Shown piece after piece: positions 2,006 through 52,748 of a DNA stretch of 64,000 nucleotides (positions within the stretch are counted from its first letter, which is position 1; the number at the start of each line of letters is the position of its first letter). The stretch is from Gemmatimonadales bacterium. GTDB lineage: Bacteria; Gemmatimonadota; Gemmatimonadetes; Gemmatimonadales; GWC2-71-9. The stretch is from NCBI GenBank assembly GCA_036555275.1, contig DATBLR010000107.1, forward strand, positions 24,717-88,716, in the 5' to 3' direction. The notes under the pieces were generated by a model. That model saw nothing but the letters and a program-made list of their open reading frames with translations. It was not told where the DNA came from and ran no database searches. The translations under genes and the position numbers were made by a program.

Positions 2006-3358
2006 CTACGGCCGGCCAGGCACCAGCCCCAGAACCAGGTCCATCACGTTGGTTCCGGTCATTCCCGTCTTGAAGAGCGCTCCTGCCGCCGCCAGCGCAT
2101 CGTAGCCATGGTGGGTCTGGAGGTCGCGTGCGGGGTCGCGCCCCGCGCGTCGGATGGCGTCCCAGGTGCCGGCCTCCGCAAACCCGCCCGCGGCGTCGGT
2201 AGGCCCGTCCCGCCCATCCGTCCCAGCCGCTAACAAGACCAGCCGCCGAGTCGCCGAGCCGTCGAGCCGTCGAGCCGCTTCGTCAAGAACTCCGGCGGCG
2301 GCAAGGGCCAGCTCCTGGGACCGCCCGCCCAGGCCGGCGTCGGGCGTGAGGGTAACAGTGGTCTCTCCGCCCCAGATCAGGACCGTATCTTTATTCACTC
2401 CGCTGGCTTGCGCGGCCGCGAGCTTTGTGGCATCATATGCCAGCAAGGTCGTGGCGAGCCGCCTGCCCACGTCGGCCGCCTCGCCGGTCAGGGCGGCGTC
2501 CAGCAGCAAGGGCTCCAGTCCCAGTTCCCGGGCCCGCGCCGCAGTGGCTTCAAGGGCCAGCCGGTTGCTGGCGATGAGAATCGTCTGAGTGCTTCGGAAG
2601 GCGGGATCGCCCGGCTTCGGTGTCTCGGGTGCGTCGCCCCGGATCACCGCCTCGAGGTGGTCGCGGAGCTCTGCTGGGATCTTCTCCCACAGGCTGTCGG
2701 TTTCGAGCATGGCTCGGATCTCGGCGGCTCTCGACGGATCTGGAATACAGGGACCTGAGCCGATTGAACCCAGGTCGTCACCGATTACGTCGGAGATTGT
2801 GAAATTTTTCACGTGCGCCGGATGGAGGGCGGCGGCGAGGCGTCCGCCGCCCCAGCGCGCGAACCGTTTGCGGATCCGGTTCATGGCAGTTATATCGAGC
2901 CCGGATCCCAGCAGGAGCCGGAATAACTCGGTGAAATCCGTCGGTCGGAGCCCAGGCAATGGGGCGCCGACGAGGCTCGTCGTGCCCCCCGAGAGGAGTA
3001 CCCACACCTCATCGTCGGGGCCCACGCGGGCTACTGCTTGGCCCACCAGCTCGGCGGCGGCGAATGAACCGGGCCCGGGTTGGGGATGGTCGCCTACCCC
3101 GACAACCAGGCGTGGGTGGGGTGAGGGCGCGGCTTCGGGCAGGACCAGCACTCCTCCTGCGGGCGCGGTTCCCCGGTCGGCCAGGACTTGAACCGCAGCC
3201 TGGGCCATCGGAAGCGAGGCCTTGCCGAGGGCGAACAGATGCACCCGACGGCTGGTGGGGTGCGCGGCGAGCGCCGCCCTCAGGGCGGGCGCCGGTGCCG
3301 CGGCATGGACCGCCGCCCAGTACAGCTCGGTGAGCAGGGTGCGCGGATCAGCCGACAT
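2006..3358 (-). CDS. Glycerate 2-kinase family protein (DUF4147 + MOFRL; TtuD/hydroxypyruvate-reductase-like annotation class)
   Basis: ORF 2006..3583 trimmed to ATG 3358 (MSADPRTLL...). GGETTV and GTDGRDGPTDAAG blocks are present. Confidence 0.85.
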   Translation of the reverse strand: MSADPRTLLTELYWAAVHAAAPAPALRAALAAHPTSRRVHLFALGKASLPMAQAAVQVLADRGTAPAGGVLVLPEAAPSPHPRLVVGVGDHPQPGPGSFAAAELVGQAVARVGPDDEVWVLLSGGTTSLVGAPLPGLRPTDFTELFRLLLGSGLDITAMNRIRKRFARWGGGRLAAALHPAHVKNFTISDVIGDDLGSIGSGPCIPDPSRAAEIRAMLETDSLWEKIPAELRDHLEAVIRGDAPETPKPGDPAFRSTQTILIASNRLALEATAARARELGLEPLLLDAALTGEAADVGRRLATTLLAYDATKLAAAQASGVNKDTVLIWGGETTVTLTPDAGLGGRSQELALAAAGVLDEAARRLDGSATRRLVLLAAGTDGRDGPTDAAGGFAEAGTWDAIRRAGRDPARDLQTHHGYDALAAAGALFKTGMTGTNVMDLVLGLVPGRP

Positions 3359-3401
3359 GGCGGGCGTGGTCAGGCAGGGTCCGGATGATGGTAGCAGGCA
3401 T

Positions 3402-3430
3402 GCGGGCGGTATGAACATACAGCCGCCCGC
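3402..3430. promoter_or_regulatory. 29-bp near-perfect palindrome in the divergent glycerate-kinase <-> sga control region (candidate operator)
   Basis: gcgggcggtatg aa catacagccgcccgc: outer 8 bp are perfect and the core is TATGAACATA. A second inverted repeat, cgagagc-ccgga-gctctcg, follows at about 3441-3465. Confidence 0.35.
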
Positions 3431-3493
3431 GAGCATTCGCGCGAGAGCCCGGAGCTCTCGCTCCGTGTTGTCTTCAGCGCAGAGGGTGATGCC

Positions 3494-4732
3494 ATGCCAG
3501 GCCGCAATTTCCTGTTCGTCCCCGGTCCCACGAATTCGCCCGACCGCATCCTCAGGGCGATGCATGTGCCCATGGAGGACCACCGGTCGTCATCGTTCCC
3601 CGGGCTCACCGGACCGATCTTCCGCGACCTGAAGCGGGTCTTCCAAAGCGAAACCGGGACGCCCTTCATCTTCCCGGGCACCGGGACCGGCGGCTGGGAG
3701 TCCGCGCTGGTTAACACCCTCTCCCCCGGCGACAAGGTGCTGTCGTTCCGCTATGGCCAGTTCAGTCACCTGTGGATCGACATGATGCAGCGGATGGGGC
3801 TCGACGTGACCGCGATCGACGTCGAATGGGGCGAAGGCGCGCCGCCGGAGACCATTCATGACATCCTGGCCAAGGACGCCAAGCATGGGTACAAGGCCGT
3901 CTGCGTAGTCCACAACGAGACCGCTACCGGGGTGACCAGCGACGTCGCGGCGGTGCGCAAGGCGATGGACGCCGCCAAACATCCCGCCTTCCTGTTCGTG
4001 GACAGCGTCTCGGGCCTCGCCAGCATCGATTTCCGGATGGATGAATGGCGAGTCGATATGGCCGTGACCGGATCCCAGAAGGGCTTCATGCTGCCGGCCG
4101 GTGCGGGCATCGTCTGCGTCAGCCCCCGGGCCCTGGAGGCCGGCAAGACGGCGAAGCTGCCGCGCTGCTACTGGAGCTTCGAGGACATGATCAAGGCGAA
4201 CGCGACGGGTTATTTCCCCTACACGCCGTCCGTGCCGATGCTGTACGGCTTGCGCGAGGCGCTCGACATGCTGTTCGAGGAGGGACTCGAGAACGTGTTC
4301 GCCCGGCACCACCGGCTGGCGGAAGGGTGCCGTCGGGCGGCCGCGGCGTGGGGCCTCACCCTGTGCGCCCGGGCGCCCAAGTGGCATTCCGATACCGTGA
4401 GCGCGATCATGGTGCCCGCGGGCGTGAATGCGGCCGACGTGATCGATGTGGCCTACCGGCGCTACAACTTCGCGTTGGGGGCCGGCCTCAACAAAGTCGC
4501 GGGTAAGTTGTTCCGGATCGGCCACCTGGGCGATCTCAACGAGATCACCCTCGCCGCGGGGTTGGCGGGGACGGAGATGGCCATGCGCGATGTCGGGATC
4601 AAGGTCGAGTTCGGCAAGGGCGTCGCCGCGGCGCAGCAGTACTGGATCGAGACCCAGACTCCGCTGCCGCCCAAGACCGTGGCGGGTCCCGCCGAGGCGG
4701 CGGTGGCGCGCAAGCCGGCGGGCGTCGCGTGA
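3494..4732 (+). CDS. sga: Serine--glyoxylate (alanine--glyoxylate) aminotransferase, class V PLP enzyme
   Basis: 412 aa. N-terminus MPGRNFLFVPGPTNSPDRIL and the SQKGFMLPAG PLP-lysine block. Gene context fits (mcl, mtkAB, hprA, ppc). Confidence 0.85.
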   Translation: MPGRNFLFVPGPTNSPDRILRAMHVPMEDHRSSSFPGLTGPIFRDLKRVFQSETGTPFIFPGTGTGGWESALVNTLSPGDKVLSFRYGQFSHLWIDMMQRMGLDVTAIDVEWGEGAPPETIHDILAKDAKHGYKAVCVVHNETATGVTSDVAAVRKAMDAAKHPAFLFVDSVSGLASIDFRMDEWRVDMAVTGSQKGFMLPAGAGIVCVSPRALEAGKTAKLPRCYWSFEDMIKANATGYFPYTPSVPMLYGLREALDMLFEEGLENVFARHHRLAEGCRRAAAAWGLTLCARAPKWHSDTVSAIMVPAGVNAADVIDVAYRRYNFALGAGLNKVAGKLFRIGHLGDLNEITLAAGLAGTEMAMRDVGIKVEFGKGVAAAQQYWIETQTPLPPKTVAGPAEAAVARKPAGVA

Positions 4733-5670
4733 GCCACACCCGCTACGAGCCGGCTCGCCCCCGGCTGCAGCGGAGCGAGCTGGCCGTACCGGGCTCCAAT
4801 CCGGCCATGTTCGAGAAGGCCCTCGCCAGCGCCGCGGACTACGTCTTCCTGGACCTGGAGGACTCGGTCGCGCCAGCGGACAAGGAACAGGCGAGGATCA
4901 ACGTCATTCGGGGGCTGAACCAGCACGACTGGCGGGGTCATGGCAAGACCATCTGCGTTCGGGTAAACGGGATCGACACCCACTACTACTACCGCGATAT
5001 GGTGGACGTGGTGGAGCAGGCCGGTGAGAAGGTGGAGGTGGTGCTGGTCCCCAAGGTCGGGGTGCCGGGAGACGTGTACCTCACTGACGCCCTGCTGACC
5101 CAGATCGAAGCCGCCAAGGGGATCACCCAGCGGATCGGCATCGACGTGCTCATCGAGACCGCGCTGGGAATGGCGAACGTGGAGGCCATCGCCCAGAGCT
5201 CGAAGCGCCTGGAGGCGATGCACTTCGGGGTGGCCGACTACGCCGCCAGCATGCGGGCGCGGACGGTCTCGATCGGCGGGCTCAACCCCGACTATCCCGG
5301 CGACCAGTGGCATGCCTCTCTCACCCGCATGATCGTGGCGTGCCGGGCCTACGGGCTCAGGCCGATCGACGGGCCGTTCGGGGACTTCAAGGATCCGGAT
5401 GCCTATCTCGCCGCGGCCCGTCGCGGTGCGGCGCTGGGCATCGAGGGGAAGTGGGCGATCCATCCCAGCCAGATCGAGCTGGCGAATCAGGTCTTCACGC
5501 CGCCGGAGGCCGAGGTGACCCGGGCCCGGCGGATCCTTGAGGCGCTGGAGCAGGCCGCGCGAGACGGAAAGGGGGCCGCCCAGCTGGATGGCAAGATGAT
5601 CGACGCCGCCAGTGCGCGCATGGCGCAGAACGTAGTGGAGATGGCGAAGGCGATCGGGGCGAAGCGGTGA
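4729..5670 (+). CDS. mcl: L-malyl-CoA/beta-methylmalyl-CoA lyase (HpcH/HpaI-CitE fold)
   Basis: 313 aa. SELAVPGSNPAMFEKA...DYVFLDLEDSVAP and the KWAIHPSQIE block. GTGA start/stop overlap with sga. Confidence 0.85.
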   Translation: MSHTRYEPARPRLQRSELAVPGSNPAMFEKALASAADYVFLDLEDSVAPADKEQARINVIRGLNQHDWRGHGKTICVRVNGIDTHYYYRDMVDVVEQAGEKVEVVLVPKVGVPGDVYLTDALLTQIEAAKGITQRIGIDVLIETALGMANVEAIAQSSKRLEAMHFGVADYAASMRARTVSIGGLNPDYPGDQWHASLTRMIVACRAYGLRPIDGPFGDFKDPDAYLAAARRGAALGIEGKWAIHPSQIELANQVFTPPEAEVTRARRILEALEQAARDGKGAAQLDGKMIDAASARMAQNVVEMAKAIGAKR

Positions 5671-5681
5671 GAGGGGCCGCC

Positions 5682-8005: not shown

Positions 8006-8976
8006 CCGCCCGCCCGCGGGTCATCATCACCCGGAAGATCCCGGCGGCATGTGAAGCGGAGGCGGAGCGGCGGTTTGACGCCGTGGTCAACCGGGACGAT
8101 GTGCCCCTGAGTGCCGACCAGCTGCGGGAGGCGCTGCGCAACGCCGACGGGCTCCTGCCGACGGTCACCGATAAGGTCACCGCCGAGGTGCTGGCGGTCG
8201 CGCCGCGGCGGGCGAAGATCATCGCCAATTTCGGGGTCGGGTTCAACAACATCGACATCGCGGCCGCCGGGGCGCAGGGCCTCACCGTCACCAACACGCC
8301 CGACGTCCTCACCGATGACACGGCGGATATCGCCATGACACTGCTGCTCATGGTGGCACGCCGCGCCGGGGAGGGCGAACGTCAGGTCCGCGCCAGGCAG
8401 TGGACCGGCTGGCGGCCGACGCACATGCTCGGGGCCAAGGTGAGCGGGAAGACACTGGGCCTGATCGGCTTCGGCCGGATCGCGAAGGCGGTGGCCCGGC
8501 GGGCGCACCACGGCTTCGGCATGCGGATCCTCTATACCGACCCGTTCCCGCCAAAGCCGGAGGAGGCGAAGGCGGTGAATGCGGAGGCGCGGGCCTCGGT
8601 GGAGGACGTACTGCGGGAGGCGGATTTCATATCGCTCCATTGCCCCGCGACGCCCGAGACCCGGCACCTGATCAACCGGGAGCGGCTGGCGGTCATGCGG
8701 CCGCACGCCTTCCTGATCAACACCGCGCGCGGCGACGTGGTGGAGGAGGCGGCGCTGGTGGCCGCGCTCAAGGCCGGCGGCATCGCGGGGGCGGGGCTCG
8801 ACGTGTTCGAGAAGGAGCCCACTGTGGCCCCCGAGCTGCTCGCCATGGAGAACGTGGTCCTGCTTCCCCACCTGGGCAGCGCCACCCAGGAAACCCGGGT
8901 TGCGATGGGTATGCGGGCCATCGAGAACCTCTCGCTCTTCTTTGCCGGGCAGCCGGTCCGCGACAAGGTCGTGTGA
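8002..8976 (+). CDS. hprA: Hydroxypyruvate/glyoxylate reductase (D-isomer-specific 2-hydroxyacid dehydrogenase)
   Basis: ORF 7762..8976 trimmed to ATG 8002 (ATGA overlap with mtkB). Motifs GLIGFGRIAKAV (NAD fold), INTARGDVV and PHLGSAT. Confidence 0.85.
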   Translation: MTARPRVIITRKIPAACEAEAERRFDAVVNRDDVPLSADQLREALRNADGLLPTVTDKVTAEVLAVAPRRAKIIANFGVGFNNIDIAAAGAQGLTVTNTPDVLTDDTADIAMTLLLMVARRAGEGERQVRARQWTGWRPTHMLGAKVSGKTLGLIGFGRIAKAVARRAHHGFGMRILYTDPFPPKPEEAKAVNAEARASVEDVLREADFISLHCPATPETRHLINRERLAVMRPHAFLINTARGDVVEEAALVAALKAGGIAGAGLDVFEKEPTVAPELLAMENVVLLPHLGSATQETRVAMGMRAIENLSLFFAGQPVRDKVV

Positions 8977-11750
8977 CCCAGGACTATCTCGCTCCGTTTA
9001 CTGCCGGCGCGCTCCCTTCCTCTCCTGATCCGCTCGCAGCCAGCGCCGCCCAATACGCGACCGAGGTAGCGGAGCACCTCTTCTCGCTCCTGGTTGGCGT
9101 CGTCAAGGTCCGACACCCCTACCTCGAGTCGGCCCTCGCGGGCGGGCCGATGGATCCCGGCTGGACCACCGACCAGCTGGAGGCGTGCCTCCGCGCCCAG
9201 GGAATCTGGTTTCAGCTCCTCTCTATCGCCGAGCAGAACGCCGGCATGCGGCGCCGTCGCCAGACTGAGACCGAGCGAGGGGCCGAGCACGTCAAGGGCA
9301 CCCTGAGTCAGGTGCTGCACGACCTGGTCCGCGACGGGATCGCCGAGCCCGACGGCGTGCGGCGCCTGCTTCACGACCTGCGCGTCCGGCCGACCATTAC
9401 GGCCCATCCCACCGAGGCCAAGCGGGTGACGGTGCTGGAAAAGCAGCGCCGCATCTACCGCAAACTCGTGGACCTGGAGTCGCCCCGCTGGACTCCGCGG
9501 GAGCGGGCCCAGCTCACCGAAGCGCTCCGCACCGATATCGAGCTCCTGTGGATGACGGGCGAGCTTCGGCTCGAGAAGCCCACGGTGCCCCAGGAGGTCT
9601 ACTGGGGGCTGCACTTCTTCAGCGAAACCCTGTTCGAGGCCGTGACCGAGACCGCCGAGAAGCTCGAGCGGCTGCTGGCACAGATCTGGCCCGAGGAACG
9701 ATTCGAGATTCCGCCATTCTTCCAGTTCGGTTCCTGGATCGGAGGCGATCGGGACGGGAATCCGTTCGTGACCAACGAGGTCACCCGACGGACGCTGTGC
9801 GAGAACCGGATGGCGAGCCTGCATCGCTATCGCCAGCGACTGGTCGAGCTGCTCAAGACGCTGAGCATCACCGAGCGGGCCGTGACGGTGACGCCCGCCT
9901 TCCGGGCCGCCCTGGACCGCGCCCTGGGAGAGAGCGGCGATGGCCCCGGGATCATCTCCCGCAACCCCGGCGAGATTTTTCGCCAGTATCTCGCCTGCAT
10001 GATGCACAAGCTCGAGGGCGCGATTCGGCATGCCGAGCGGGGAGGCAAGGCCCTGGCGGGCGACGGCTACGGCTCGGCCGACGAGCTGCTGACCGATCTG
10101 CGCATCCTCGAGAATGCGCTCCGGGACGGAGGCAGCGCCACGCTCGCGAGCCAGCTCTTGCGGCCGGTGCGGCGCGAGGTCGAGACCTTTCGCTTCAGTA
10201 CCGTCCGGCTCGATCTCCGGGAAAATACGGCCCGCCTGACCGAGGCGCTGGTGGCACTCTGGCGCATCACGACGGGCCAGGGCGGCGACCCGCCGGCGCT
10301 GGCTTCGGATGAGTGGAAGGGCTGGCTCCTGGGGGAGCTGGCCCGGCCCCGCCGGGGCGACCGGCCGCCGGAGGCGTTCCCGCCGGGGGTGCGGGAGACC
10401 ATCGGCATGTTTCGGCTCGTGGGGGAAATGCGGGCCGGGCTGGATCGGGAGGCCTTCGGCGCCTTCATCCTCAGCATGACCCGCGAGGTTGCCGATGTGC
10501 TCGGTGTTTACCTCCTGGCCAAGGTGGCGGGCCTCTTCGCCGACGAGTCGGGGGTGGAGAGCTGCACTCTCCCCATTGTCCCGCTGTTCGAGACCATTGA
10601 CGACCTGCACCGCGCACCCGGGATGATGCGGGAGCTCCTTAGCATCCCGGTGGTGCGGCGGACGGTGCGGGCTCTCGGCGGAGCCCAGGAAGTGATGATC
10701 GGTTATTCGGACAGCAACAAGGATGGCGGCTACTTGTCCTCCAACTGGGAGCTGTCCAAAGCCCAGACCCGACTCACCCGGCTGGGCGAGGAGCTTGGGG
10801 TCCCGATCAGCTTCTTCCACGGGCGAGGCGGGTCGGTAAGCCGGGGAGGCGCGCCGCTGGGCCGATCTATCGCGGCCCAGCCTGCCGGATCCATCCGGGG
10901 CCGGATGCGGGTGACAGAGCAGGGGGAGGTTGTCTCGCTCAAATACGCCAACCGGGGCACCGCGCAGTACCAGGTGGAGCTCCTTGCCGCGAGCGTGATC
11001 GAGCATTCCTTCCGCTCCGAGCAGGAGGCGGCCCTCGCCCCGACCAGCGAATTCGACGAGGCCATGGAGGCTCTCTCCGGCGCGGCCCAGGCGGCCTACC
11101 GCCGCTTCGTCGAGCGCCCCGATCTGATCGGCTACTTCACTGCCGCGAGCCCGCTGGAGGAGCTCACCCTGCTGAACATCGGCTCCCGGCCGGCACGCCG
11201 CACTGGCGCCCGGACCCTGGCCGATCTGCGGGCGATTCCCTGGGTGTTCGCCTGGTCGCAGAACCGGCACTTCATCACCGGCTGGTACGGGATGGGAAGC
11301 GGGCTCCAGACCTTCATGCAGATCCGGGGCGAGCGGGGGGAGAAGCTGCTCAAACGAATGCTGGAAGGCTCGCGACTGTTCCAGCTGCTGCTCGATGAGG
11401 TGGAGAAGACCCTGGCCTATGTCGATCTCGACATCGCCCGCATGTATGCGGAGCTGGTCCCCGAGGCAACCTGCCGGGACGCGATCTTCGGCTTGGTGGA
11501 GGAGGAGCACCATCGCACCGTCGAGGCCGTCCTGCGAGTGAGCGGGGCCTCGGAGCTGGCCGAGCGCTTTCCCCGGTTCCGCCGCCGCCTGGCGCGTCGC
11601 ATGGCGACCATCAATCAGGTGAGCCGACAGCAGGTGGAGCTGCTGCGCCGCTTCCGAGCGGCTGCGAGTGAGTCGGAGCGGCAGCGCTACCTCTCCGCAT
11701 TGCTCCTCTCGATCAATTGCATCTCGCTCGGGTTCGGGGCGACGGGGTGA
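8973..11750 (+). CDS. ppc: Phosphoenolpyruvate carboxylase
   Basis: ORF 8400..11750 trimmed to GTG 8973 (GTGTGA overlap with hprA), giving about 925 aa. Motifs TAHPTEAKR and GYSDSNKDGG. Confidence 0.9.
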   Translation: MTQDYLAPFTAGALPSSPDPLAASAAQYATEVAEHLFSLLVGVVKVRHPYLESALAGGPMDPGWTTDQLEACLRAQGIWFQLLSIAEQNAGMRRRRQTETERGAEHVKGTLSQVLHDLVRDGIAEPDGVRRLLHDLRVRPTITAHPTEAKRVTVLEKQRRIYRKLVDLESPRWTPRERAQLTEALRTDIELLWMTGELRLEKPTVPQEVYWGLHFFSETLFEAVTETAEKLERLLAQIWPEERFEIPPFFQFGSWIGGDRDGNPFVTNEVTRRTLCENRMASLHRYRQRLVELLKTLSITERAVTVTPAFRAALDRALGESGDGPGIISRNPGEIFRQYLACMMHKLEGAIRHAERGGKALAGDGYGSADELLTDLRILENALRDGGSATLASQLLRPVRREVETFRFSTVRLDLRENTARLTEALVALWRITTGQGGDPPALASDEWKGWLLGELARPRRGDRPPEAFPPGVRETIGMFRLVGEMRAGLDREAFGAFILSMTREVADVLGVYLLAKVAGLFADESGVESCTLPIVPLFETIDDLHRAPGMMRELLSIPVVRRTVRALGGAQEVMIGYSDSNKDGGYLSSNWELSKAQTRLTRLGEELGVPISFFHGRGGSVSRGGAPLGRSIAAQPAGSIRGRMRVTEQGEVVSLKYANRGTAQYQVELLAASVIEHSFRSEQEAALAPTSEFDEAMEALSGAAQAAYRRFVERPDLIGYFTAASPLEELTLLNIGSRPARRTGARTLADLRAIPWVFAWSQNRHFITGWYGMGSGLQTFMQIRGERGEKLLKRMLEGSRLFQLLLDEVEKTLAYVDLDIARMYAELVPEATCRDAIFGLVEEEHHRTVEAVLRVSGASELAERFPRFRRRLARRMATINQVSRQQVELLRRFRAAASESERQRYLSALLLSINCISLGFGATG

Positions 11751-11752
11751 CG

Positions 11753-11851
11753 GGACGAGGCGAGGAGGCGAAAAGGCCAGCAGGCTAGGTCGACGGTTGC
11801 CGGTGTCCCCCTGCCAGTTGGCCTCCTGGCCTCCTCGCCTGCTGGCCTTCC
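11753..11851. repeat. Purine-rich / pyrimidine-rich complementary segments between convergent ppc and rlmN
   Basis: gaggcgaggagg and ggccagcagg (11753-11785) have complements cctcctcgcc and cctgctggcc (11820-11851). The complements are in the same, not mirrored, order. The right part overlaps the rlmN 3' end. Confidence 0.5.
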
Positions 11852-12891
11852 ACCTCTACCCGCAGCTGCCCGCACGCGGCACTGATGTCGAGCCCGCGAC
11901 TGCGCCGGACGACCGCCTCGACCCCCCGCTGACCGAGCCGAGCGGCGAAGGCGCGGAGCCGGCTCGGCGGGCTGGGCGCGAGATCGGGAGCGCCGCCGGG
12001 GTGCAGCGGCAGCAGGTTCACCAGCGCCCCCGTCTTCCGGGCGAGAGCGGCCAGCTCGTCGGCGTCTCGTTCGCTGTCGTTCAGTCCGGCGATCAGTACG
12101 TACTCGAAGGTGATCCGCTTGCGGAAGGCGGCGGCCGCCGCCAAGACCTCCTTCAGAGGATACTTCTTCTCGACCGGCATGAGCGGCCGACGGCGGGCCG
12201 CGCTCGCGGCGTGGAGGGAGATCGCCAGCCGGAACTGTTCCGGCCGTTTGGCGAGCTGCTTCATGCCGGGAATGATCCCCACGGTTGAGACGGTAATGTG
12301 CCGCGCGCCGATGCCGAATCCCTCGGCACTATTCAGGACGGTGAGGGCGACGTCCACCGCGGGCCAGTTGAGCAGCGGCTCGCCCATGCCCATGAACACG
12401 ACATTGGTCGGCTTGTCAGCTGGGTCGCGAAGCACCAGCTCGCGGACCTGCCCCAGGATCTCTGAGGGCCGAAGGTTGCGTCGGAAGCCCATCTGGCCCG
12501 TGGCACAGAACCGGCAGCCGAGGGCGCAGCCCGCCTGGGAGGAGATGCACAACGTGCGGCGGGCGCCGGAAGGGATGAGGACCGATTCGACAAGCTCTCC
12601 GTCATCGAGACGCCACAGCTGTTTTCGGGTGCCGTCCTGCGAGCGCTGTTCGGTAGCCAGGGTGAGACGGGGGAGGGGCCAGTCCCGCTGCAGGAGCACC
12701 CGCAATTCCGCCGGAAGCTCGGTGGCCTCGGCCCACTGCCCGATCGGTCGCTGCCACAGCCGAGGCAGCAGCTGCCGCAGTCGAAATCGGGGCAGTCCGA
12801 GATTCCCCACCCAGCTTTCGAGGCGGGCCGACGCCTCCCGCGGCGGAAGGTCGAGCAGGGTGGCGGTTACGACGCCAGGACCGGCGGCCAT
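11785..12891 (-). CDS. rlmN: 23S rRNA/tRNA adenine-C2 methyltransferase, radical SAM (RlmN/Cfr family)
   Basis: ORF 11785..13230 trimmed to ATG 12891 (MAAGPGVV...). GCALGCRFCATG CxxxCxxC cluster. The C-terminal tail runs into the repeat at 11820-11851. Confidence 0.85.
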   Translation of the reverse strand: MAAGPGVVTATLLDLPPREASARLESWVGNLGLPRFRLRQLLPRLWQRPIGQWAEATELPAELRVLLQRDWPLPRLTLATEQRSQDGTRKQLWRLDDGELVESVLIPSGARRTLCISSQAGCALGCRFCATGQMGFRRNLRPSEILGQVRELVLRDPADKPTNVVFMGMGEPLLNWPAVDVALTVLNSAEGFGIGARHITVSTVGIIPGMKQLAKRPEQFRLAISLHAASAARRRPLMPVEKKYPLKEVLAAAAAFRKRITFEYVLIAGLNDSERDADELAALARKTGALVNLLPLHPGGAPDLAPSPPSRLRAFAARLGQRGVEAVVRRSRGLDISAACGQLRVEVEGQQARRPGGQLAGGHRQPST

Positions 12892-12975
12892 GGACCAAAG
12901 ATACATGCAGGGGGCCCGGCCGCGGCGCCGGACATCGCCGTCTCCAGCCCGCCTAACCTTCGCTGCCTGAATCGG

Positions 12976-13004
12976 TTGCCCTGCTCTCCGACGCTCATTA
13001 GGTT
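12976..13004 (+). promoter_or_regulatory. Sigma70-type promoter candidate TTGCCC-N17-TAGGTT for ptsN-aspS
   Basis: -35 at 12976-12981 and -10 at 12999-13004. The same -35 hexamer and spacing recur at 45722 and 47814. Confidence 0.4.
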
Positions 13005-13032
13005 TGGCCACATCATTCGTCCCGATCCAGGA

Positions 13033-13488
13033 TTGCTGCTCACCGAACTCCTCACGCCAGACCGCATCAGGGTACCCATCGCGGCTGTCGACAAGCCCGG
13101 CGTTCTCCGCGAGTTGACCCAGTTGCTCGCCGAGCGCGCCGGGACCGCCGTCGAGCCGCTCCTGACCGCGGTGACCGAGCGGGAACGGGTGCTGTCCACC
13201 GGCATCGGTCACGGCATCGCGATTCCCCACGCCAAATCACCGCTGGTCGCGGACCTCGCCCTCGTCGGCGGCAGTGCCCCGGCCGGCATCCCGTTCGAAG
13301 CGCTGGACGGGGAGCCGGTTCGCCTGTTCTTTCTGCTCATAGGCCCTGACAGCGCCGCCGGGCTCCACGTCAAGGCGCTGTCCCGTATCGCTCGACTGGT
13401 GCGTCGGGAAAGTGTGCGGGACGCGCTGCTCGCGGCCAAGACCCCCGAGGCGTTCCATCAGGTGCTGGTCGAGGCCGAGGAGCGATGA
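13033..13488 (+). CDS. ptsN: PTS EIIA-Ntr type nitrogen regulatory protein
   Basis: GIGHGIAIPHAK phospho-His block and LFFLLIGP. The track start, TTG 12976, coincides with the putative -35 box, so TTG 13033 (LLLTELLTPDRI) is preferred. Start remains uncertain. Confidence 0.75.
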   Translation: MLLTELLTPDRIRVPIAAVDKPGVLRELTQLLAERAGTAVEPLLTAVTERERVLSTGIGHGIAIPHAKSPLVADLALVGGSAPAGIPFEALDGEPVRLFFLLIGPDSAAGLHVKALSRIARLVRRESVRDALLAAKTPEAFHQVLVEAEER

Positions 13489-17661: not shown

Positions 17662-18172
17662 CCGGCTCGGCGGCTCGGCGACTCGTCGGCTCGGCAGGAG
17701 GAGCTCGGCGACGCCCGGCCGGTCTTCGCAGCTGACGGTCCGGGTGGCGGGCGACCGGGTCCGCCTGCCGCTCTCGGCCGGGCGTGTACGCCGGGTCGTC
17801 AGGGCTGTATGGTCTGCCGAGGGCCGAGCCGCCGAACCGCCGAGCCGGCAAGCCGACGTCAGCATCGTGTTCGTTGGCCCGGCGCGTATGCGGCTCCTCA
17901 ACCGCGCCTGGAAACGCCACGACCGTGCGACCGATGTGCTGGCCTTCACGCTGCACTCGCCGGGGGGCGGGCTGACAGGAGAGGTGTACATTTGTGCCGC
18001 AATCGCCCGCGCGGCAGCCCGGGAGCACGGGGTCCCGGCGCAGGAAGAGCTGGTTCGGCTGGTGGTGCACGGCACCCTGCACCTGCTGGGCTACGACCAC
18101 CCCGAGAGTGCGGCCCGGACCCGCTCGCCGATGTGGCGGCGGCAAGAACGCTTCGTAGAGGCGCTCGCGTGA
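17627..18172 (+). CDS. ybeY: rRNA maturation endoribonuclease YbeY
   Basis: HGTLHLLGYDH zinc-binding motif and TDVLAF block. The start is ambiguous: TTG 17627 overlaps the previous gene and would translate both repeat arms. Confidence 0.8.
   Translation: MVGSRKTLGGNSRLGGSATRRLGRRSSATPGRSSQLTVRVAGDRVRLPLSAGRVRRVVRAVWSAEGRAAEPPSRQADVSIVFVGPARMRLLNRAWKRHDRATDVLAFTLHSPGGGLTGEVYICAAIARAAAREHGVPAQEELVRLVVHGTLHLLGYDHPESAARTRSPMWRRQERFVEALA
17662..17858. repeat. Octamer-array inverted repeat (TCGGCGGC class): left arm 17662-17695, right arm 17823-17858
   Basis: c tcggcggc tcggcgac tcgtcggc tcggcagg ... gccgagcc gccgaacc gccgagcc ggcaagcc. The left arm starts on the nucleotide after the 7TM-HD stop. 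The right arm lies inside the ybeY reading frame. Confidence 0.75.
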
Positions 18173-29202: not shown

Positions 29203-30243
29203 ATGGTACCATCACATCTCGTGGCCGACCTCAAGGCCCGCAGGACCCCAGCGGTCGCGCGGGCCATTTCGCTGGTCGAGAACGCCAGGCCTGGCTTCGA
29301 GGAGCTACTTTCCACCATCCACTCCACCCTCGGGCACGCCCAGAGGATCGGAATTACCGGCCCCCCTGGGGCAGGCAAATCCACCCTGACCGGGCAGCTG
29401 GTCCAGGCGTTGCGCGCCCGGGGCCTGACAGTTGCGGTCGTAGCGGTCGATCCCACCAGCCCGTTCACCGGCGGGGCCGTCCTGGGGGACCGGATCCGTA
29501 TGGAGTCGGTCGCTCTGGACCCCGGGGTGTTCATCCGCTCCATGGCGACCCGTGGCTCGCTGGGGGGGCTGGCGACGACCACCCGCGAGGTCTGCGATGT
29601 CCTGGATGCCGGCGGCTTTGACCGGATCCTGATAGAGACGGTGGGGGTTGGCCAGTCGGAGCTCGACGTAGCTCAGAGCGCGGATTCCACCGTCCTGGTG
29701 CTGGTCCCGGAATCGGGCGACGGCATCCAGACCCTGAAATCCGGGGTGATGGAAATCGGCGACATCTTCGTGGTCAACAAGGCGGACCGCCCAGGTGCCG
29801 ACCGCCTGCGCCAGGAGATCGAGATCACTCTTGGAATCCGGAGCGGTACGACCTTTCGGCATGTCCGGCCCCACCACGGCGCGCGATCGACCGACGAGGG
29901 CCGGGTCGCCGAGCCAGCGAGCCGCCGAGCGGTCGAATGGAAGCATCCGGTGCTCGCCACCGTCGCCGCCAGGGGTGAGGGCACCGTCGAACTGGTAACG
30001 GCGCTGGATCTTCACCATGAGTACCTGACGGCGTCGGGAGAGCTGATCGAACGGCGACGGCGCCGTATGTACCAGCGTACCCGCGAGGTGGTGAATCGCG
30101 CGACCCGACAGTGGATCTGGCAGGAAACCGGCGCGGAGCAGGTGATTCGCGATCGCATGGACGACGTAGTCGCAGGACGGCTCAGCCCCTACGAGGTGGC
30201 GGCCGAGGTGCTGGATGCACTCAAGCAGGGGTCTCGGGTATGA
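29203..30243 (+). CDS. meaB: Methylmalonyl-CoA-mutase-associated G3E GTPase (MeaB/ArgK)
   Basis: [10 protein letters not shown]-loop, ETVGVGQSE and VVNKAD. An alternative GTG start lies at 29176. Confidence 0.9.
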
Positions 30244-31952: not shown

Positions 31953-31967
31953 CGTGGGCTTTCGTAA

Positions 31968-32096
31968 CTGGTACCGGGTACCGCGTATCGCGTACCGGTT
32001 CCCGTGGGGCATATACCGGATGCCCGGTCGCCGCATATCGGTCGATTCCTTACCCGTACTCGGTACGCGGTACTGGGTACTCGGCACCAGGTACTC
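31968..32096. repeat. Array-hairpin element, GGTACCG class, between the mutase large subunit and the eRF1-like gene
   Basis: ct ggtaccg ggtaccg cgtatcg cgtaccg g - 54-nt spacer - ccgtact cggtacg cggtact gggtact cggcacc aggtact c. Ends 14 nt before ATG 32111. Confidence 0.85.
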
Positions 32097-32110
32097 ACCC
32101 AGATTCCAGA

Positions 32111-34386: not shown

Positions 34387-36015
34387 GTGACTACGACGAC
34401 TCCTCCCCGGAACTCGCGGCTCAGGAGCCTGACCGAGGAATATCTCGCCCTCGCGGCAAAGCTCCGGGAAGGTGGTGGGGCCAAGCGGGTGGCGAGGATG
34501 CACCAGAAAGGGCAGCTCTCCCCACGCGAGCGGGTTCACGGGCTGCTCGATCCGGGGACCCCCTGGCTCGAGATAGGCCTGCTGGTCGCGTACGACCAAT
34601 ACGACGGCCAGGCGCCCGGCGCGGGGGTGGTTACGGGGCTCGGGGTGGTCGAGGGACACGAAGTCGTGATCGTCGCCAACGATGCCACGGTCAAGGCGGG
34701 CTCCTGGTGGCCCGAGACGATCCGGAAGATCCTGCGGGCACAGGAGATCGCGATGCGCCAGCGGATCCCGATCATCTACCTGGTGGATTCGGCCGGGGTA
34801 AACCTCCCCTATCAGGGCGGCGTGTTCCCGGGACAATACGGGGCCGCCCGAATCTTCTACTACAACTCGCTGATGCGGCGCTACCTGAACGTGCCCCAGA
34901 TCAGCGCGGTCATGGGAAGCTGCATCGCCGGCGGCGCGTACCTCCCGGCGCTGTCCGATGTGATCTTCATGGTCGAAGGCACCAGCTTCATGGGCCTCGG
35001 CGGGCCCAACCTGGTCAAGGGCGCCACTGGCCAGATGGTGGACCCCGATACGCTCGGCGGCGCCGCCATGCACACCTCCGTCTCCGCCGTCGCGCACTAT
35101 CGCGCCGCGACCGATGCGGAATGCCTCAAGATGATCCGCGGCTACGTGGCCCGGTTGCCCAGCCTCCGAGCCGTCGAGCCGCCGAGCCCTCGTGTCTCCG
35201 AGCCGCCCAGCCGGCCCGCCACCGATCTCTACGACCTTCTTCCCACTGACCACCGCATGTCCTACGACATGCACGCACTGCTTGGGTGCTTTCTCGATGG
35301 CGGGAGGCTGGATGAATTCCAGCCGGACATCGCGCGGGAACTGCTCTGCGGTCACGCCTGGATCGAGGGGAGACCGGTCGCGATCCTGGCCAACGCCCGA
35401 ACGGTGATCAAGGGGAAGTCAGGGCAGATGCCGCGGATCGGCGGAATCGTCTACACGGAAAGCGCCGAGAAGGCGGCCTACTTTATCGAAACGGCGAGTC
35501 GGCAGCGGATCCCGCTGCTCTTCGTGCAGGACGTCAGCGGTTTCATGGTCGGCAGCGAGGCGGAGCAGTCAGGCATCATCCGGGCCGGTGCGCGCTTCGT
35601 CGAGGCGATGGCGACCGCAGTCGTCCCCAAACTGGTGTTGACGGTCAACCATGCGTCGGGTGCCGGGTATTACGCCATGGCAGGGCAGGGATTCGACCCC
35701 GACTTCATTCTCAGCTGGCCCACGGGCCGTATGGCTGTCATGGAAGGAGAGTCGGCCGTGGAGGCGGTCCACGGGGTGGAGTTGGCACGGTCCCGCGCGG
35801 AAAAGCGGGCGCCCGCAAAGGAAGTACAGGCCTCCGCCGCCAGCATGCGAGCCGATTACGAGCACCAGCTCGACGCGAAGTATGCGGCAGCGCGCGGCTT
35901 CGTGGACGCCATCGTGACGGTCGAGGAGACCCGCGAGGTACTTGCCTTCCTGCTGCGAACGACGTCGGGCTTCGGCGGCCCGCATATCGGACCCTTCGTG
36001 CTGCCGCCGCTATGA
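34387..36015 (+). CDS. Acyl-CoA carboxylase carboxyltransferase (beta) subunit, methylcrotonyl-/geranyl-CoA carboxylase-like
   Basis: 542 aa. Blocks LSPRERVHGLLDPGTPWLEI, IVANDATVKAGSWWP and AVMGSCIAGGAYLPA. No biotin-carboxylase partner is present in the window. Confidence 0.85.
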   Translation: MTTTTPPRNSRLRSLTEEYLALAAKLREGGGAKRVARMHQKGQLSPRERVHGLLDPGTPWLEIGLLVAYDQYDGQAPGAGVVTGLGVVEGHEVVIVANDATVKAGSWWPETIRKILRAQEIAMRQRIPIIYLVDSAGVNLPYQGGVFPGQYGAARIFYYNSLMRRYLNVPQISAVMGSCIAGGAYLPALSDVIFMVEGTSFMGLGGPNLVKGATGQMVDPDTLGGAAMHTSVSAVAHYRAATDAECLKMIRGYVARLPSLRAVEPPSPRVSEPPSRPATDLYDLLPTDHRMSYDMHALLGCFLDGGRLDEFQPDIARELLCGHAWIEGRPVAILANARTVIKGKSGQMPRIGGIVYTESAEKAAYFIETASRQRIPLLFVQDVSGFMVGSEAEQSGIIRAGARFVEAMATAVVPKLVLTVNHASGAGYYAMAGQGFDPDFILSWPTGRMAVMEGESAVEAVHGVELARSRAEKRAPAKEVQASAASMRADYEHQLDAKYAAARGFVDAIVTVEETREVLAFLLRTTSGFGGPHIGPFVLPPL

Positions 36016-40282: not shown

Positions 40283-40337
40283 GGCGTCACCGACGGCCTC
40301 AGCGTCCCTGGTCGGGGCCTGCCGTAGCCCAGCATGA

Positions 40338-40401
40338 GGCCCGGTGGGTGGGGCGAGCGGGCGCTGCGCTATGGCACGCCCCGAGCCCCACCCATCGGGC
40401 C
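40338..40401 (+). other. 17-bp stem / 30-nt loop hairpin in the AtuA | partner intercistronic gap
   Basis: ggcccggtgggtggggc (40338-40354) pairs with gccccacccatcgggcc (40385-40401), with one G-A mismatch. Confidence 0.5.
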
Positions 40402-40439
40402 GCTGCCGACCCACGAGACAACAACGGGACAGCAACCGA

Positions 40440-40811
40440 ATGAAAGCAGCTGCGCGCCGCTCGCCGACTCGGTTCATCCAGCTCCGTTACCTCGCTCACG
40501 CCCGCTCCGGCGATAAGGGCGACACCGCCAACGTGGGGCTCATCGCCCTCGAGCCGGCCTACTATCCCCTCCTCGTGAAGCAGGTCACCCGCGCCCGGGT
40601 GAAGCGCCACTTCCGCGGCATGGTGAGAGACGTAGACCGCTTTGAGCTGCCGAATCTCAACGCGCTGAACTTTCTGCTGCACGGCGCCCTCGACGGCGGC
40701 GGCACCATCTCCCTGAAGACCGATGCCCAGGGGAAGGTCTACTCTACGGCCCTGCTGCGCATGGAGGTCCCCGTACCCGCGGCGCTGGCGCGCAAGGTCC
40801 GGGCACGATGA
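40440..40811 (+). CDS. Small AtuA-partner protein (DUF4387-like)
   Basis: ORF 40344..40811 trimmed to ATG 40440. LAHARSGDKGDTANVGLIA ... LNFLLHGALDGGG pattern. Paired with AtuA-family genes by recollection. Confidence 0.6.
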   Translation: MKAAARRSPTRFIQLRYLAHARSGDKGDTANVGLIALEPAYYPLLVKQVTRARVKRHFRGMVRDVDRFELPNLNALNFLLHGALDGGGTISLKTDAQGKVYSTALLRMEVPVPAALARKVRAR

Positions 40812-48198: not shown

Positions 48199-48205
48199 AG
48201 ATTTC

Positions 48206-49267: not shown

Positions 49268-49291
49268 GGATGGGGGGCGGGGGGGATCCGG

Positions 49292-49612: not shown

Positions 49613-49617
49613 AACTT

Positions 49618-49647
49618 ATATTTGCACTGGCATATGAATGGCGTCAA
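49618..49647 (-). promoter_or_regulatory. Promoter candidate TTGACG-N18-AAATAT. The -10 ends 5 nt before the arsR ATG, implying a leaderless mRNA.
   Basis: Minus-strand reading: cgcTTGACGccattcatatgccagtgcAAATATaagttATG. Confidence 0.35.
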
Positions 49648-49680
49648 GCGGGTTCTGGCCGACGTCCCCGGGGGGCTCGT

Positions 49681-50355: not shown

Positions 50356-50361
50356 GACTGG

Positions 50362-51561
50362 TCAGTCCATGCGCTCCACCAGGAGGGCGATGCCTTGGCC
50401 CACCCCGATGCACATCGTAGCGAGGCCGTAGCGGCCCCCGGTCCGGCCCAAGGCGTGGACCAGCGTAGTGAGGATCTTCGCTCCGCTGGCCCCAAGCGGA
50501 TGTCCCAGTGCGATGGCTCCGCCGTAGATGTTGACCTTTGCCGGGTCCAGGCGGAGTTCTCGGATACAGGCGAGCGCCTGGGCCGCGAACGCTTCGTTGA
50601 GCTCGATGAGATCCAGCTGCCCGACGTCCAGCCCGGCACGCTCCAGCACCTTCCGCGTGGCCGGGATCGGACCGAGCCCCATGACCGAAGGGTCAACCCC
50701 GGCCACCGCGCTGGCGACGACCCGGGCGAGCGGCTTCTGCCCCAGCTCCCGGGCCGCCTGCGCGCTCAGAATCGTGAGGGCCGCGGCGCCGTCGTTAATA
50801 CCGCTCGAGCTGCCGGCGGTCACGGTCCCGTCTTTCGTGAATGCGGGCTTCAGCTTGGCGAGACCCTCCAGAGTGACCCCCGGCCTTGGAGGCTCATCGG
50901 TCGTGAACTGGCTCGTGCCCCCCTTGCCGTCCGGAACAGAAACAGGGACCAGTTCGTCCGTGAACACGCACTGGCTGAGGGCAACTTGGGTCCTGCGCTG
51001 GCTCTCCACCGCGAAGGCGTCCTGTTCGGCCCGCGTAATGCCATACTGGGCCGCCACCCGTTCCGCCGTCTCACCCAGCGCGATGGTCCAGTCCCTTGGC
51101 ATTCGGGGATTGGTGAAGCGCCACCCGACCGTTGAGTCGGCGATTGCGGGGGGAATCCGGCTCCAGGCCGTCCCGGTCTTGAGCATCACGTACGGGGCCC
51201 GGGTCATGCTCTCGACCCCGCCTGCGATGAACACCTGCCCTTCGCCGGCGCGCACCGCCTGGGCCGCGCTGGCCACGGCCTGCAGGCCGGAACCGCACAG
51301 ACGGTTCACGGTCTGCCCCGGTACCCCGACCGGCAGACCGGCCAGGAGTGCCGCCATCCTGGCGACGTTGCGGTTGTCCTCCCCAGCCTGGTTGACACAG
51401 CCTAGGATCACGTCCTCGATCCGATCCACGGGGAGGTCGGTCCGGTCTATCAGCCCCCGGAGGGCGATGGCGGCAAGGTCGTCCGCCCGGACCTCGGCGA
51501 GGGCTCCGGCGGCGCGGCCGACCGGGGTACGGACCGCGGCGGTAATGACGACCTCGAGCAC
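50362..51561 (-). CDS. Acetyl-CoA C-acetyltransferase (thiolase II)
   Basis: ORF 50362..52212 trimmed to GTG 51561 ([15 protein letters not shown]). Blocks [26 protein letters not shown] and CIGVGQG. Confidence 0.88.
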
Positions 51562-51690
51562 GGCAGTTCTCGGCGTTCTGGGGTCGGGGGAATCTAGCGC
51601 CCCTCCGCTTGCGGCGGGCACGGCCCCCGCCCATCCTCCGGTGGGGTGCCTACTTAACAACATTCGCCAGAGGCCGTCTCCCTCTCGACA

Positions 51691-52245
51691 ATGCGCGTGC
51701 CGGCCGCCAATGCCCCCGCCTCCACCTCGGACCCGGCTCTTGTTGACGCCTATCGGGCCGGGGACGAGCGCGCCGCGACGGAGCTGGTGACCCGGCACGC
51801 GCTGGCGGTTGGGCGATTCCTGAGTGCGGCCGGTGCCGGGACCTCGGACCTCGACGACCTGGTCCAGGAGACCTTCATCCGGGCTTTTCGAGCTCTGGAC
51901 GGCTGGCGGGGAGAGGCGGCCTTTCGGAGCTGGATCATGGCCATCGCGAGCAACCTGCTCAAGGACCAGTTTCGACGGGCCCGTGGCCGCAGGATGGTTG
52001 CGCTTGAGGATGCCGATCTGGCGGCCCACGATGATCCGGCGGCGACTCTGGACGCGACAGAGGCGGAACGGAGACTCCAGCAGGGATTGGGCAGCCTGCC
52101 CAGGTTGCAGCGGGAAGTCTTCTTGCTGAGGGCCCAGCAAGGGATGGACTACCAGGACATCGCCGATTCCCTCGCGACCACGCCCGGGGCGGCCAGGGTC
52201 CACTATCACCACGCGGTAAAACGGCTGAAGGAGTTGATGTCATGA
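51691..52245 (+). CDS. ECF (group 4) RNA polymerase sigma factor
   Basis: 184 aa. Region 2 [11 protein letters not shown] and a region 4 HTH near the C-terminus. Overlaps the anti-sigma start. Confidence 0.85.
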
Positions 52246-52748
52246 CAGACTGCGAGTCGGTTACCGATCGGATCCCGGTGGTCGCGCTTGGTCGCGACGC
52301 TTGGACCGCCGAGGAGGCGGCACACCTTGCCTCCTGCCCCGCCTGCCAGGCCGAGTGGAAGGTTGTCGAGACGGCTCGGCGGCTCGGCGACTCGGCGGCT
52401 CGCCGTGTCGATCCGGACCGGGTGAACAGCATCGTGATCGCACGGCTGCGCGCAGATCGGCGCTGGAGGCGGGCGGCGTGGATCGGTGCGGTCGCGGTCG
52501 CGGCTGCCATGGCGCTTGTGGTGTGGACCGGTCGGCCGACACACCAGGCTGGCCCGATCGCCACCAGGGGAGCGGTTGGGTTCCACCTGCCGCTTGCCGA
52601 ATTGGACCGCCTCGACAGTGGGCAGCTCGAGCGGATCTTGGAGGATCTGGAGGCTCCGCTCGGCGCCCAGGCGGCGCCGGAGGCTCCGGAGCTGGGCGAC
52701 CTGAAGGATTCGGAACTCGAACGTGTGCTTCGCACCCTGGAGGGTTGA
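52242..52748 (+). CDS. Anti-sigma factor (zf-HC2 N-terminus, one TM helix)
   Basis: HLASCPACQAEW, TM segment AAWIGAVAVAAAMALVVW. Contains an octamer DNA array at about 52372-52407 (ARRLGDSAARR). Confidence 0.7.
   Translation: MTDCESVTDRIPVVALGRDAWTAEEAAHLASCPACQAEWKVVETARRLGDSAARRVDPDRVNSIVIARLRADRRWRRAAWIGAVAVAAAMALVVWTGRPTHQAGPIATRGAVGFHLPLAELDRLDSGQLERILEDLEAPLGAQAAPEAPELGDLKDSELERVLRTLEG

Follow-up and report, generated by a model that had tools for sequence, protein, structure and literature searches.

Rickettsia palindromic elements (RPEs), which Ogata and colleagues are said to have described in 2000, are reportedly in-frame selfish DNA found within protein genes, about 100-150 bp long and conserved in sequence. 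The cyanobacterial STRR heptamers, attributed to Mazel and colleagues (1990), reportedly form several families per genome and feature, among other cases, a hairpin extension within the RNase P RNA gene. Both groups are mentioned elsewhere, RPEs in PMC1779305 and PMC10969869, STRRs in PMC2858038 and PMC4692102. Dispersed tandem repeats of G-rich heptamers have been described in Xanthomonas (GGGAATC) and Nostoc (GGGGA[C/T]T), where they are mostly intergenic, lie near the 3' end of the upstream open reading frame (ORF), often as convergent pairs, and are intragenic in 7-11% of cases (Rehm et al. 2015, PMC4692102). In Geobacter metallireducens, four tandem GGGACCG heptamers are found at 49 inter- and intragenic sites, along with paired octamer sites, GTTGCTYN, lying on opposite strands at a variable distance (Aklujkar et al. 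2009, PMC2700814). In Borg elements, recent tandem repeats within ORFs create intrinsically disordered regions (PMC9879509). In this work, we describe a dispersed tandem octamer found in a 64-kb stretch of DNA (67% G+C), hereafter the window, from an uncultured Gemmatimonadales bacterium of soil and wetland, arrays of which lie in frame within the genes for glycerate kinase, YbeY, MeaB, an acyl-CoA carboxylase carboxyltransferase and a probable anti-sigma factor. The proteins of the window are 73-98% identical to their matches in uncultured Gemmatimonadales, and nearly identical DNA is present in more than 20 metagenome runs from wetland, peat and soil.

Tandem Repeats Finder (TRF) identified six period-8 arrays in the window, containing 3.0 to 7.1 copies each: 2241-2278 (4.8 copies, 86% matches), 17663-17695 and 17823-17855 (4.1 copies each), 29907-29930 (3.0 copies), 35157-35213 (7.1 copies, 69% matches) and 52372-52402 (3.9 copies, 91% matches). 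Five of the six lie in frame within genes, the sixth (17663-17695) is located directly 3' of a stop codon and is the inverted partner of the array found in ybeY. The canonical unit is CGAGCCGC, its general form CGAGCCGN, where N is mostly C (238 of 272 units, from 75 arrays in Gemmatimonad sequences) and T in 26 further units; the unit given in the initial annotation, GCCGCCGA, is only a rotation of the commonest variant. A search for a three-unit pattern, allowing up to 3 mismatches, produced 14 matches, all of them inside the six arrays, versus 0.05 expected from shuffled sequences, and a two-unit pattern, with at most 1 mismatch, was matched 17 times versus 0.34 expected. The lone octamer is not enriched outside the arrays (19 matches, about half of which within arrays, versus 13.6 expected): the special feature is therefore the tandem arrangement, not the word, and an uptake-sequence-like word could be ruled out on the same basis.

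The CGAGCCGN unit is free of stop codons in all six frames, whatever the N. Because 8 is coprime with 3, the three frames of either orientation encode a single cyclic octapeptide, RAAEPPSR in one orientation and AARRLGGS in the other; the earlier remark that each orientation always yields one type of peptide is therefore true, but trivial. Most arrays encode 8-13 residues, about one period of the peptide, and the carboxyltransferase array about 18. When glycerate kinase, YbeY, MeaB and the carboxyltransferase are aligned to solved structures, the match extends past either end of the array in one and the same frame. The presence of five in-frame arrays, with the peptides originally quoted for them, is thus confirmed by TRF, by the pattern counts and by these frame-continuous alignments, four of the hosts being assigned by Pfam and NCBIfam and the anti-sigma factor on weaker grounds, given below. 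The coding length of about one peptide period per array, and the occurrence of both orientations in the MeaB loop, bear out the proposal that the 8-nt period is a DNA-level feature and not a peptide repeat. In the four hosts for which orthologues were compared (glycerate kinase, YbeY, MeaB and carboxyltransferase) the arrays occupy variable loops or linkers, as had been surmised. The way in which they came to be there is less uniform than proposed: insertion or expansion within the gene holds for YbeY, for glycerate kinase and for the MeaB loop, but not for the carboxyltransferase, and the frame is not kept through 24-nt steps of three units, ybeY showing a net gain of 21 nt and the carboxyltransferase gene one of 3 nt.

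The ybeY gene (17744..18172, plus strand) was recognized by Pfam and NCBIfam, by alignment to the solved structure 1oz9 and by comparison with the N-termini of orthologues; its start codon is uncertain, either the GTG at 17744 or a TTG/GTG at 17627-17648. The array inside the gene (17823..17858, plus strand, peptide GRAAEPPSRQ) is the 3' arm of an inverted pair, whose 5' arm (17663..17695, minus strand, CGGCTCG orientation) begins 2 nt past the TAG stop of the upstream 7TM-HD gene. The minus arm would thus belong either to the 5' leader of ybeY or, if translation starts at 17627/17630, to an N-terminal extension of the protein. The same minus arm lies directly after the stop in the orthologues L127 and L128, and several orthologue gene calls translate it, e.g. 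as MARRPGGSAARF. The 33-nt arms are 85% complementary and 127 nt apart; the intervening loop contains the start region, and the plus arm sits in the α1-β2 loop of the protein. In the predicted RNA fold of minimum free energy (-135.7 kcal/mol, z = -4.7) the outermost stem is formed by this pair, and the leader is present in RNA-derived contigs of a sparse metatranscriptome.

Most Gemmatimonadales YbeY proteins feature the sequence GERRxADV at the site of the plus arm, while the clade of the window, and no other, features AEGRAAEPPSRRADI, longer by 7 residues (21 nt). At the DNA level, 30 nt of array take the place of 9 nt (CGACGGTCA); the ancestral site, GAGCGACGG, resembles the octamer unit. 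A metagenome scan for ybeY relatives returned one locus, 49% identical.

A different situation is found in the carboxyltransferase, the acyl-CoA carboxylase beta subunit (34387..36015, plus strand; Carboxyl_trans, assigned by Pfam and NCBIfam). A degenerate array (35159..35213, plus strand) coincides with the inter-domain linker, SLRAVEPPSPRVSEPPSRP, whose length is practically constant, differing by +1 residue (+3 nt) from solved homologues and from all 120 orthologues. Orthologues free of the array feature LPRPQGVQHRITQAEPPARPVTDLY (also given as LPRPQGVQHRITQAEPPARP), encoded by DNA without an 8-nt period; the clade of the window alone has octamer DNA in the linker, with the peptide RRAVEPPSRRAAEPPSRP. 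The ancestral linker already held the unit-like AEPPARP. As judged from these alignments, the array is an overwrite of pre-existing linker residues, not an insertion. The comparison with orthologues, suggested at the outset as a check for lineage-specific insertions, thus supports them for ybeY, but not for the carboxyltransferase, whose orthologues hold a linker of the same length.

The meaB gene (29221..30243, plus strand), identified by Pfam and NCBIfam as encoding the methylmalonyl-CoA mutase-associated GTPase, contains a degenerate array (29902..29937, plus strand, detected by TRF and pattern matches) within a hypervariable loop, which extends from HHG to W-x-PVL and ranges from 10 to 45 residues across 120 Gemmatimonadales orthologues. 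Depending on the lineage, the loop contains the AEPPSRR-type peptide, the RRLGGSA-type peptide or both, i.e. a plus array, a minus array or a whole hairpin; a complete in-gene hairpin, (NCGGCTCG)n-loop-(CGAGCCGN)n, is found in the meaB DNA of P0041 (L121). Solved actinobacterial MeaB proteins are 23-36 residues shorter at this loop. AlphaFold2 places the array in a long coil (residues 208-243) of low confidence: the predicted local distance difference test (pLDDT) score stays under 50 at residues 211-236, and its block means for the array residues 228-239 are 35 and 52. A candidate decayed minus arm, looked for by eye 5' of the array (29880-29905), shows no convincing similarity. In a strain 99.16% identical (L120), meaB differs by 8 substitutions, all falling within 100 nt and 4 of the 8 within the 31-nt array, where the two sequences are distinguished by substitutions only. 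In L123, a perfect array of eight CCGCCGAG units (4676-4740) is found 12 nt past the stop of a VTT-domain gene, with the meaB ATG about 35 nt further on. The window lacks an array at this spot, and the one in L123 has the appearance of a recent expansion. A gene for a protein of baeRF family 10/2 (archaeo-eukaryotic release-factor-like; 32111-33262) lies within the cluster formed by meaB and the mutase, HAD, B12-binding and carboxyltransferase genes, and its position is kept in L123 and L125.

The glycerate 2-kinase gene (2006..3358, minus strand; DUF4147 and MOFRL, assigned by Pfam, NCBIfam and solved-structure alignment) contains an array of about 5 units of CGAGCCGN (2239..2278, plus strand, detected by TRF and pattern matches), which the coding strand reads as AARRLDGSATRRL. 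The array corresponds to an insertion of 9-10 residues with respect to the solved structures 1x3l and 2b8n. The loop containing it is 52 residues long, versus a typical length of 42-47, and exceeds nearly all of 137 representatives; from these comparisons, the net gain may be put at about 5 to 10 residues. The fifth host (52242..52748, plus strand) is probably a zinc-binding anti-sigma factor, as suggested by sub-threshold matches to NCBIfam anti-sigma families and by its motifs, namely a HxxxCxxC motif followed by a hydrophobic segment; the gene overlaps by 4 nt the stop of an extracytoplasmic function (ECF) sigma factor gene (51691-52245). Its array (52372..52410, minus strand, CGGCTCG orientation on the coding strand, peptide TARRLGDSAARR) is located just after HxxxCxxC.

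A scan of a genome collection identified at least 119 stretches containing an array, and the shares reported here are among the matches listed. Forty-three of the 119 derive from Gemmatimonad metagenome-assembled genomes (MAGs), ten of them from a single MAG, and the remaining ones from Actinomycetota, Thermoanaerobaculia, Chloroflexota, Myxococcota and others. Within the Gemmatimonad sequences, 33 of 70 arrays lie in genes called by a codon-model gene caller trained on the window, the hosts being confirmed by Pfam in ten further cases: DnaE, AcrB, DinB, two Ser/Thr kinases, two amidases, an aldehyde dehydrogenase fusion, a Zn-dependent alcohol dehydrogenase (Zn-ADH) and a solute-binding protein. 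Seven of these ten arrays are found at or just past a domain boundary, those of the Ser/Thr kinases just after the kinase domain, and three inside the domain match (DnaE HHH_6, AcrB and the solute-binding protein). Apparent insertions with respect to the profile amount to 29 residues in DnaE HHH_6 and to about 15 in Zn-ADH, while no net insertion is seen in AcrB or in the solute-binding protein. In-frame octamer arrays were also seen in Nonomuraea (DEPTSRRADEPTSRR), in a deltaproteobacterial MAG and in Chloroflexota MAGs (GESATRRLGDSA, GESASRRVSES), at L006, L007, L023, L092 and L103, on the basis of window-trained gene calls; the phenomenon is therefore not confined to Gemmatimonadota. An array in L123 (20297-20328) constitutes the n-region of the lipoprotein signal peptide of a PQQ-type sugar dehydrogenase (MRHHNDGLGGSAARRLGTLVLAAGLVAC), to which it supplies positive charges.

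Arm length varies from 3 to 11 units, and arrays of 10-11 units with few mismatches are found; perfect or near-perfect long arrays of this kind indicate recent expansion. Whole hairpins occur within the ORFs of AcrB in L029 (near residues 488-512), DinB in L001 and MeaB in L121. The loops of the hairpins, from 10 to about 140 nt long, are unrelated in sequence, and in some cases (ybeY, L038, L110 and L124) contain native gene starts. The flanks of the 75 Gemmatimonad arrays show neither a conserved motif beyond the decaying repeat nor a conserved tetranucleotide, and no target-site duplications were seen by eye. With loops unrelated and flanks unconserved, the arrays lack the feature that defines RPEs and other in-frame elements of the MITE (miniature inverted-repeat transposable element) type, namely a discrete, conserved sequence with defined ends. 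The polarity is 5'-(NCGGCTCG)n-loop-(CGAGCCGN)n-3' in all ten independent inverted pairs (L001, L017, L029, L038, L071, L078, L099, L110, L121 and 17663-17855 of the window), and no pair with the opposite arrangement was encountered; were both arrangements equally likely, the two-sided chance of this outcome would be about 0.002. Among the CGAGCCGN in-gene arrays of the window, only that of ybeY is part of a palindrome, and no inverted partner of the other four was found within 350 nt. Rfam, searched at the gathering threshold, produced no match on the arrays, its sole match in the window being a tRNA gene at 57117-57199.

Hairpins made of other units are found between the genes of the window, where seven intergenic inverted pairs of 7-8-mers (GGCTATC, GGGGAAC, GGTACCG and others) start 0-20 nt past stop codons. 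Heptamer hairpins of this kind are located at 26-54/94-116, 5681-5711/5760-5782, 6991-7021/7032-7065, 15254-15275/15289-15319, 31970-31998/32056-32096 and 63774-63792/63814-63845. Their stems are long and GC-rich, and inspection, with no dedicated terminator scan run, revealed no T tract after them; intrinsic terminators were rejected for lack of a T/U run. Position may be conserved where the unit is not: the junction after the methylmalonyl-CoA mutase stop features a hairpin of GGTACCG in the window (31952-32111), of GGCTATC in L123 (7517-7599) and of GGCCATC in L125 (7613-7673), the unit having been turned over between species. At the AtuA/ferredoxin-like junction, inverted octamer arrays, GGCGGACN/NGTCCGCC, bracket the ribosome-binding site and the ATG in L124 (6481-6621). 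In L123 (15861-15949) and L125 (15837-15905), where the ATG overlaps the upstream stop, the arrays are translated into an N-terminal extension of about 30 residues; no clear array is found at the junction in the window (40282-40440).

Some further repeats of the window deserve mention. In the GGGGAAC hairpins the G-rich GGGGAAC arm comes first in 3 of 3 cases, and (GGGGAAC)4 is a G-quadruplex-type motif. The first GGGAACG arm, at 15254-15275, provides the C-terminal codons of the gene at 13581-15278. An inverted octamer pair, 11735-11789 (CGGGGCGA/GAGGCGAG) and 11819-11848 (TGGCCTCC), lies between convergent genes (8973-11750, plus strand, and 11785-13230, minus strand), and its arms overlap the last codons of both. 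Of a different kind is a 32-nt near-perfect palindrome with 23-nt periodicity (1950-2018), located between convergent genes ending at 1962 and 2006 and resembling a bidirectional terminator.

The arrays of glycerate kinase, YbeY, MeaB and carboxyltransferase are spanned by contigs of four independent metagenome runs, with 0-1 differences and no indels. At the anti-sigma array, DNA contigs end on the repeat, whose k-mers are about 500 times deeper than its flanks; the array is spanned by a metatranscriptome contig, with flanks identical to 52342-52371 and 52403-52432 of the window, the sparse contigs of this type being taken to show the presence of arrays in RNA-derived contigs. More in general, k-mer depth summed over the arrays (52360-52407, 17653-17703 and 2242-2273) exceeds the depth of the flanks by a factor of 15 to about 500 in four metagenomes; short-read contigs stop at arrays, and the canonical array occurs at hundreds of places in these wetland, peat and soil communities. 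An assembly or binning artefact, i.e. chimeric joins caused by the repeats, would be in agreement with the break of de Bruijn contigs at the anti-sigma array and with the high repetition of array k-mers, but is almost certainly not the explanation: it is refuted for the four arrays spanned by single contigs, frame and homology are unbroken across the arrays, arrays recur at these sites in orthologues from other samples, and RNA supports the fifth. Unit number varies between species at orthologous sites, but is stable among near-identical strains, where the comparison proposed in the initial annotation revealed no change in array length. No copy-number polymorphism was found in the contigs of the four DNA runs, although contigs lose rare variants and low-frequency ones are possible.

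Taken together, these data suggest that the arrays are probably copies of a dispersed, slippage-prone short tandem repeat, CGAGCCGC, tolerated in protein loops, common in Gemmatimonadales and also encountered in other GC-rich soil bacteria. Arrays would nucleate at sites already resembling the unit, and would then grow and be homogenised by replication slippage; second arms might arise by template switching between nearby partial complements. Selection would leave those copies which keep the frame, the net change being a multiple of 3, only in tolerant sites, such as loops, inter-domain linkers, N-terminal leaders and signal-peptide n-regions. In such places they would be translated as unstructured surface segments, with a peptide having presumably no function of its own, while an action at the level of RNA is possible for junction hairpins, the pair that brackets the ybeY start among them. 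Unlike most other units, the octamer can persist in ORFs because it contains no stop in six frames, because each orientation gives one frame-independent peptide, because it is made up of GC-rich codons that are common in this genome and because Pro, Ser, Arg, Ala and Glu abound in the peptides.

Several observations weigh against such an origin. Slippage starting from random local seeds accounts neither for the recurrence of a single canonical unit in so many unrelated loci and genomes nor for the polarity shared by all ten inverted pairs. Unit number is unchanged in near-identical strains and gives no sign of ongoing slippage at the in-gene copies. Between species, third codon positions are identical in 58 of 82 cases inside the arrays, versus a fraction of about 0.5 elsewhere in the same genes, a figure which hints at a constraint at the DNA or RNA level or at homogenisation, not what would be expected of a neutral passenger; codon bias may contribute as well. 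Finally, the in-gene share in the wider sample depends on our own gene caller, except for the ten Pfam hosts. The recurring unit and the fixed polarity, in particular, leave a dedicated mechanism or a mobile hairpin as a rival.

A mobile hairpin would be a small palindromic element, RPE-, REPIN- or MITE-like, of the form (NCGGCTCG)n-loop-(CGAGCCGN)n, moved in trans and inserted within genes as well as between them, the single arrays found in genes having lost one arm. Complete in-frame hairpins in AcrB, DinB and MeaB, the polarity of the pairs and the presence of one unit at many loci, with array k-mers up to about 500-fold deeper than flanks in metagenomes, would all be accounted for; the MeaB loop, with plus, minus or both arrays, would fit one old hairpin followed by differential loss of arms. 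We regard this as rather unlikely, since loops are unrelated, of very different length and in some cases occupied by native gene starts, flanks are not conserved beyond the decaying repeat, target-site duplications were not seen by eye and arms comprise anything between 3 and 11 units. Two sites, those of the carboxyltransferase and of ybeY, moreover, look like local conversion of pre-existing unit-like sequence, and the occurrence of octamer arrays in Actinomycetota, Chloroflexota and Myxococcota favours a convergent origin. Variable arms, perfect arrays, unrelated loops, unconserved flanks and two converted unit-like sites fit a tandem repeat better than a discrete mobile element.

Arrays might instead be kept for a role at the RNA or DNA level, with junction hairpins working as terminators, transcript stabilisers or translation attenuators. 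At ybeY, ribosome-binding site and start codon would be sequestered in a loop whose closing stem measures about 30 bp, and in-gene singletons would be by-products or long-range pairing partners. This is in agreement with the location of first arms 0-20 nt past stops throughout the window, with the pairs bracketing a downstream gene start in the window, L127, L038, L110 and L124, with the fold predicted for the ybeY pair, with the persistence of hairpins at orthologous junctions despite unit change and with the conservation of synonymous sites, higher inside the arrays than outside. As a general explanation it is nonetheless quite improbable, because 4 of the 5 in-gene arrays have no inverted partner within 350 nt, no Rfam family is matched, no T run follows the hairpins and the copies located mid-gene, in loops, are left unexplained. 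Selection on the peptide, either as a linear motif (AEPPSRR or RRLGGSA) or as a flexible linker, with an incidental 8-nt period, could be invoked since the peptides are disorder-prone and sited in linkers, and the ancestral carboxyltransferase linker already contained EPPARP. We consider it very improbable: the DNA period is 8, not 3 or 24, the majority of arrays cover about one period of the peptide, a single MeaB loop hosts both orientations with their unrelated peptides, the same arrays are common in non-coding DNA, and synonymous positions follow the unit.

A more speculative proposal, which we think unlikely as a whole, is that in Gemmatimonadales, and perhaps in other soil phyla, an active, orientation-specific process builds or spreads hairpins of 7-8-mers as RNA elements of operon junctions. 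The agent could be, for instance, a hairpin-recognising single-strand transposase or nuclease, or a template-switching repair route, and spill-over of the hairpins into ORFs may be a regular source of loops, linkers, leaders and signal-peptide n-regions, as in DnaE, AcrB, MeaB and YbeY. The polarity of the ten pairs, the recurring unit and the raised conservation of synonymous sites within arrays are hints in this direction. If the fixed polarity does reflect a dedicated mechanism, a repeat-generating or repeat-spreading system not described so far would be at work in a major soil phylum.

A tandem repeat whose unit is not a triplet is thus able to lengthen or rewrite parts of conserved proteins, essential ones included, and to leave them intact, provided that it is open in six frames and that the net change is a multiple of three. 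The arrays also offer a concrete and datable way to follow the origin of disordered loops and linkers in bacteria. In practical terms, the arrays of Gemmatimonadota MAGs interrupt de Bruijn assemblies, displace start-codon calls and make N-terminal extensions appear longer than they are.

RPEs had been indicated in the initial annotation as the closest precedent. The analogy holds for palindromic repeats lying in frame in conserved genes, translated and tolerated at the surface, as in the whole in-ORF hairpins of L029, L001 and L121. It fails for the arrays themselves, which are made of a variable number of 8-mers, have unrelated loops and no conserved ends, are commonly found as single arms and, in one case, overwrite existing residues; the heptamer families are closer. 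As in STRRs, families of tandem repeats are scattered through the genome, but STRR units are AT-richer and belong to another phylum, and translation in protein genes is not among their described features. Borg repeats similarly add disordered peptide segments through tandem DNA repeats within ORFs, but in long perfect arrays whose units are multiples of 3 nt, whereas the present ones are 8-nt, short and decayed, with a fixed peptide per orientation. Non-triplet tandem repeats within coding sequences are also typical of phase-variable simple sequence repeats; in contrast to contingency loci, the arrays are imperfect, showed no polymorphism in unit number among the strains and samples compared and are hosted by housekeeping genes, not by surface or restriction-modification genes.

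Geobacter features dispersed tandem 7-8-mers, octamer inverted pairs with variable spacing and intragenic copies, as found here; there, however, the units are different, and the repeats were catalogued as putative regulatory sites, with no analysis of frame or orthologues reported. The Xanthomonas and Nostoc heptamers share with the octamer a short non-triplet unit, the presence at many loci, pairs able to form stem-loops and a position which is kept while length and sequence vary, and the GGGGAAC, GGCTATC and GGTACCG hairpins of the window match their description. The octamer differs from them in unit length, in not being G-quadruplex-prone and in phylum, in that about half of its copies, against about 10%, are found in ORFs, and in the evidence, obtained from orthologues, of changes to conserved proteins. 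No paper on such arrays in Gemmatimonadota was found in the literature. Dispersed repeats of 7-8 nt are thus known; what is new here is an 8-nt family open in all six frames, with about half of its copies translated, documented site by site against orthologues.

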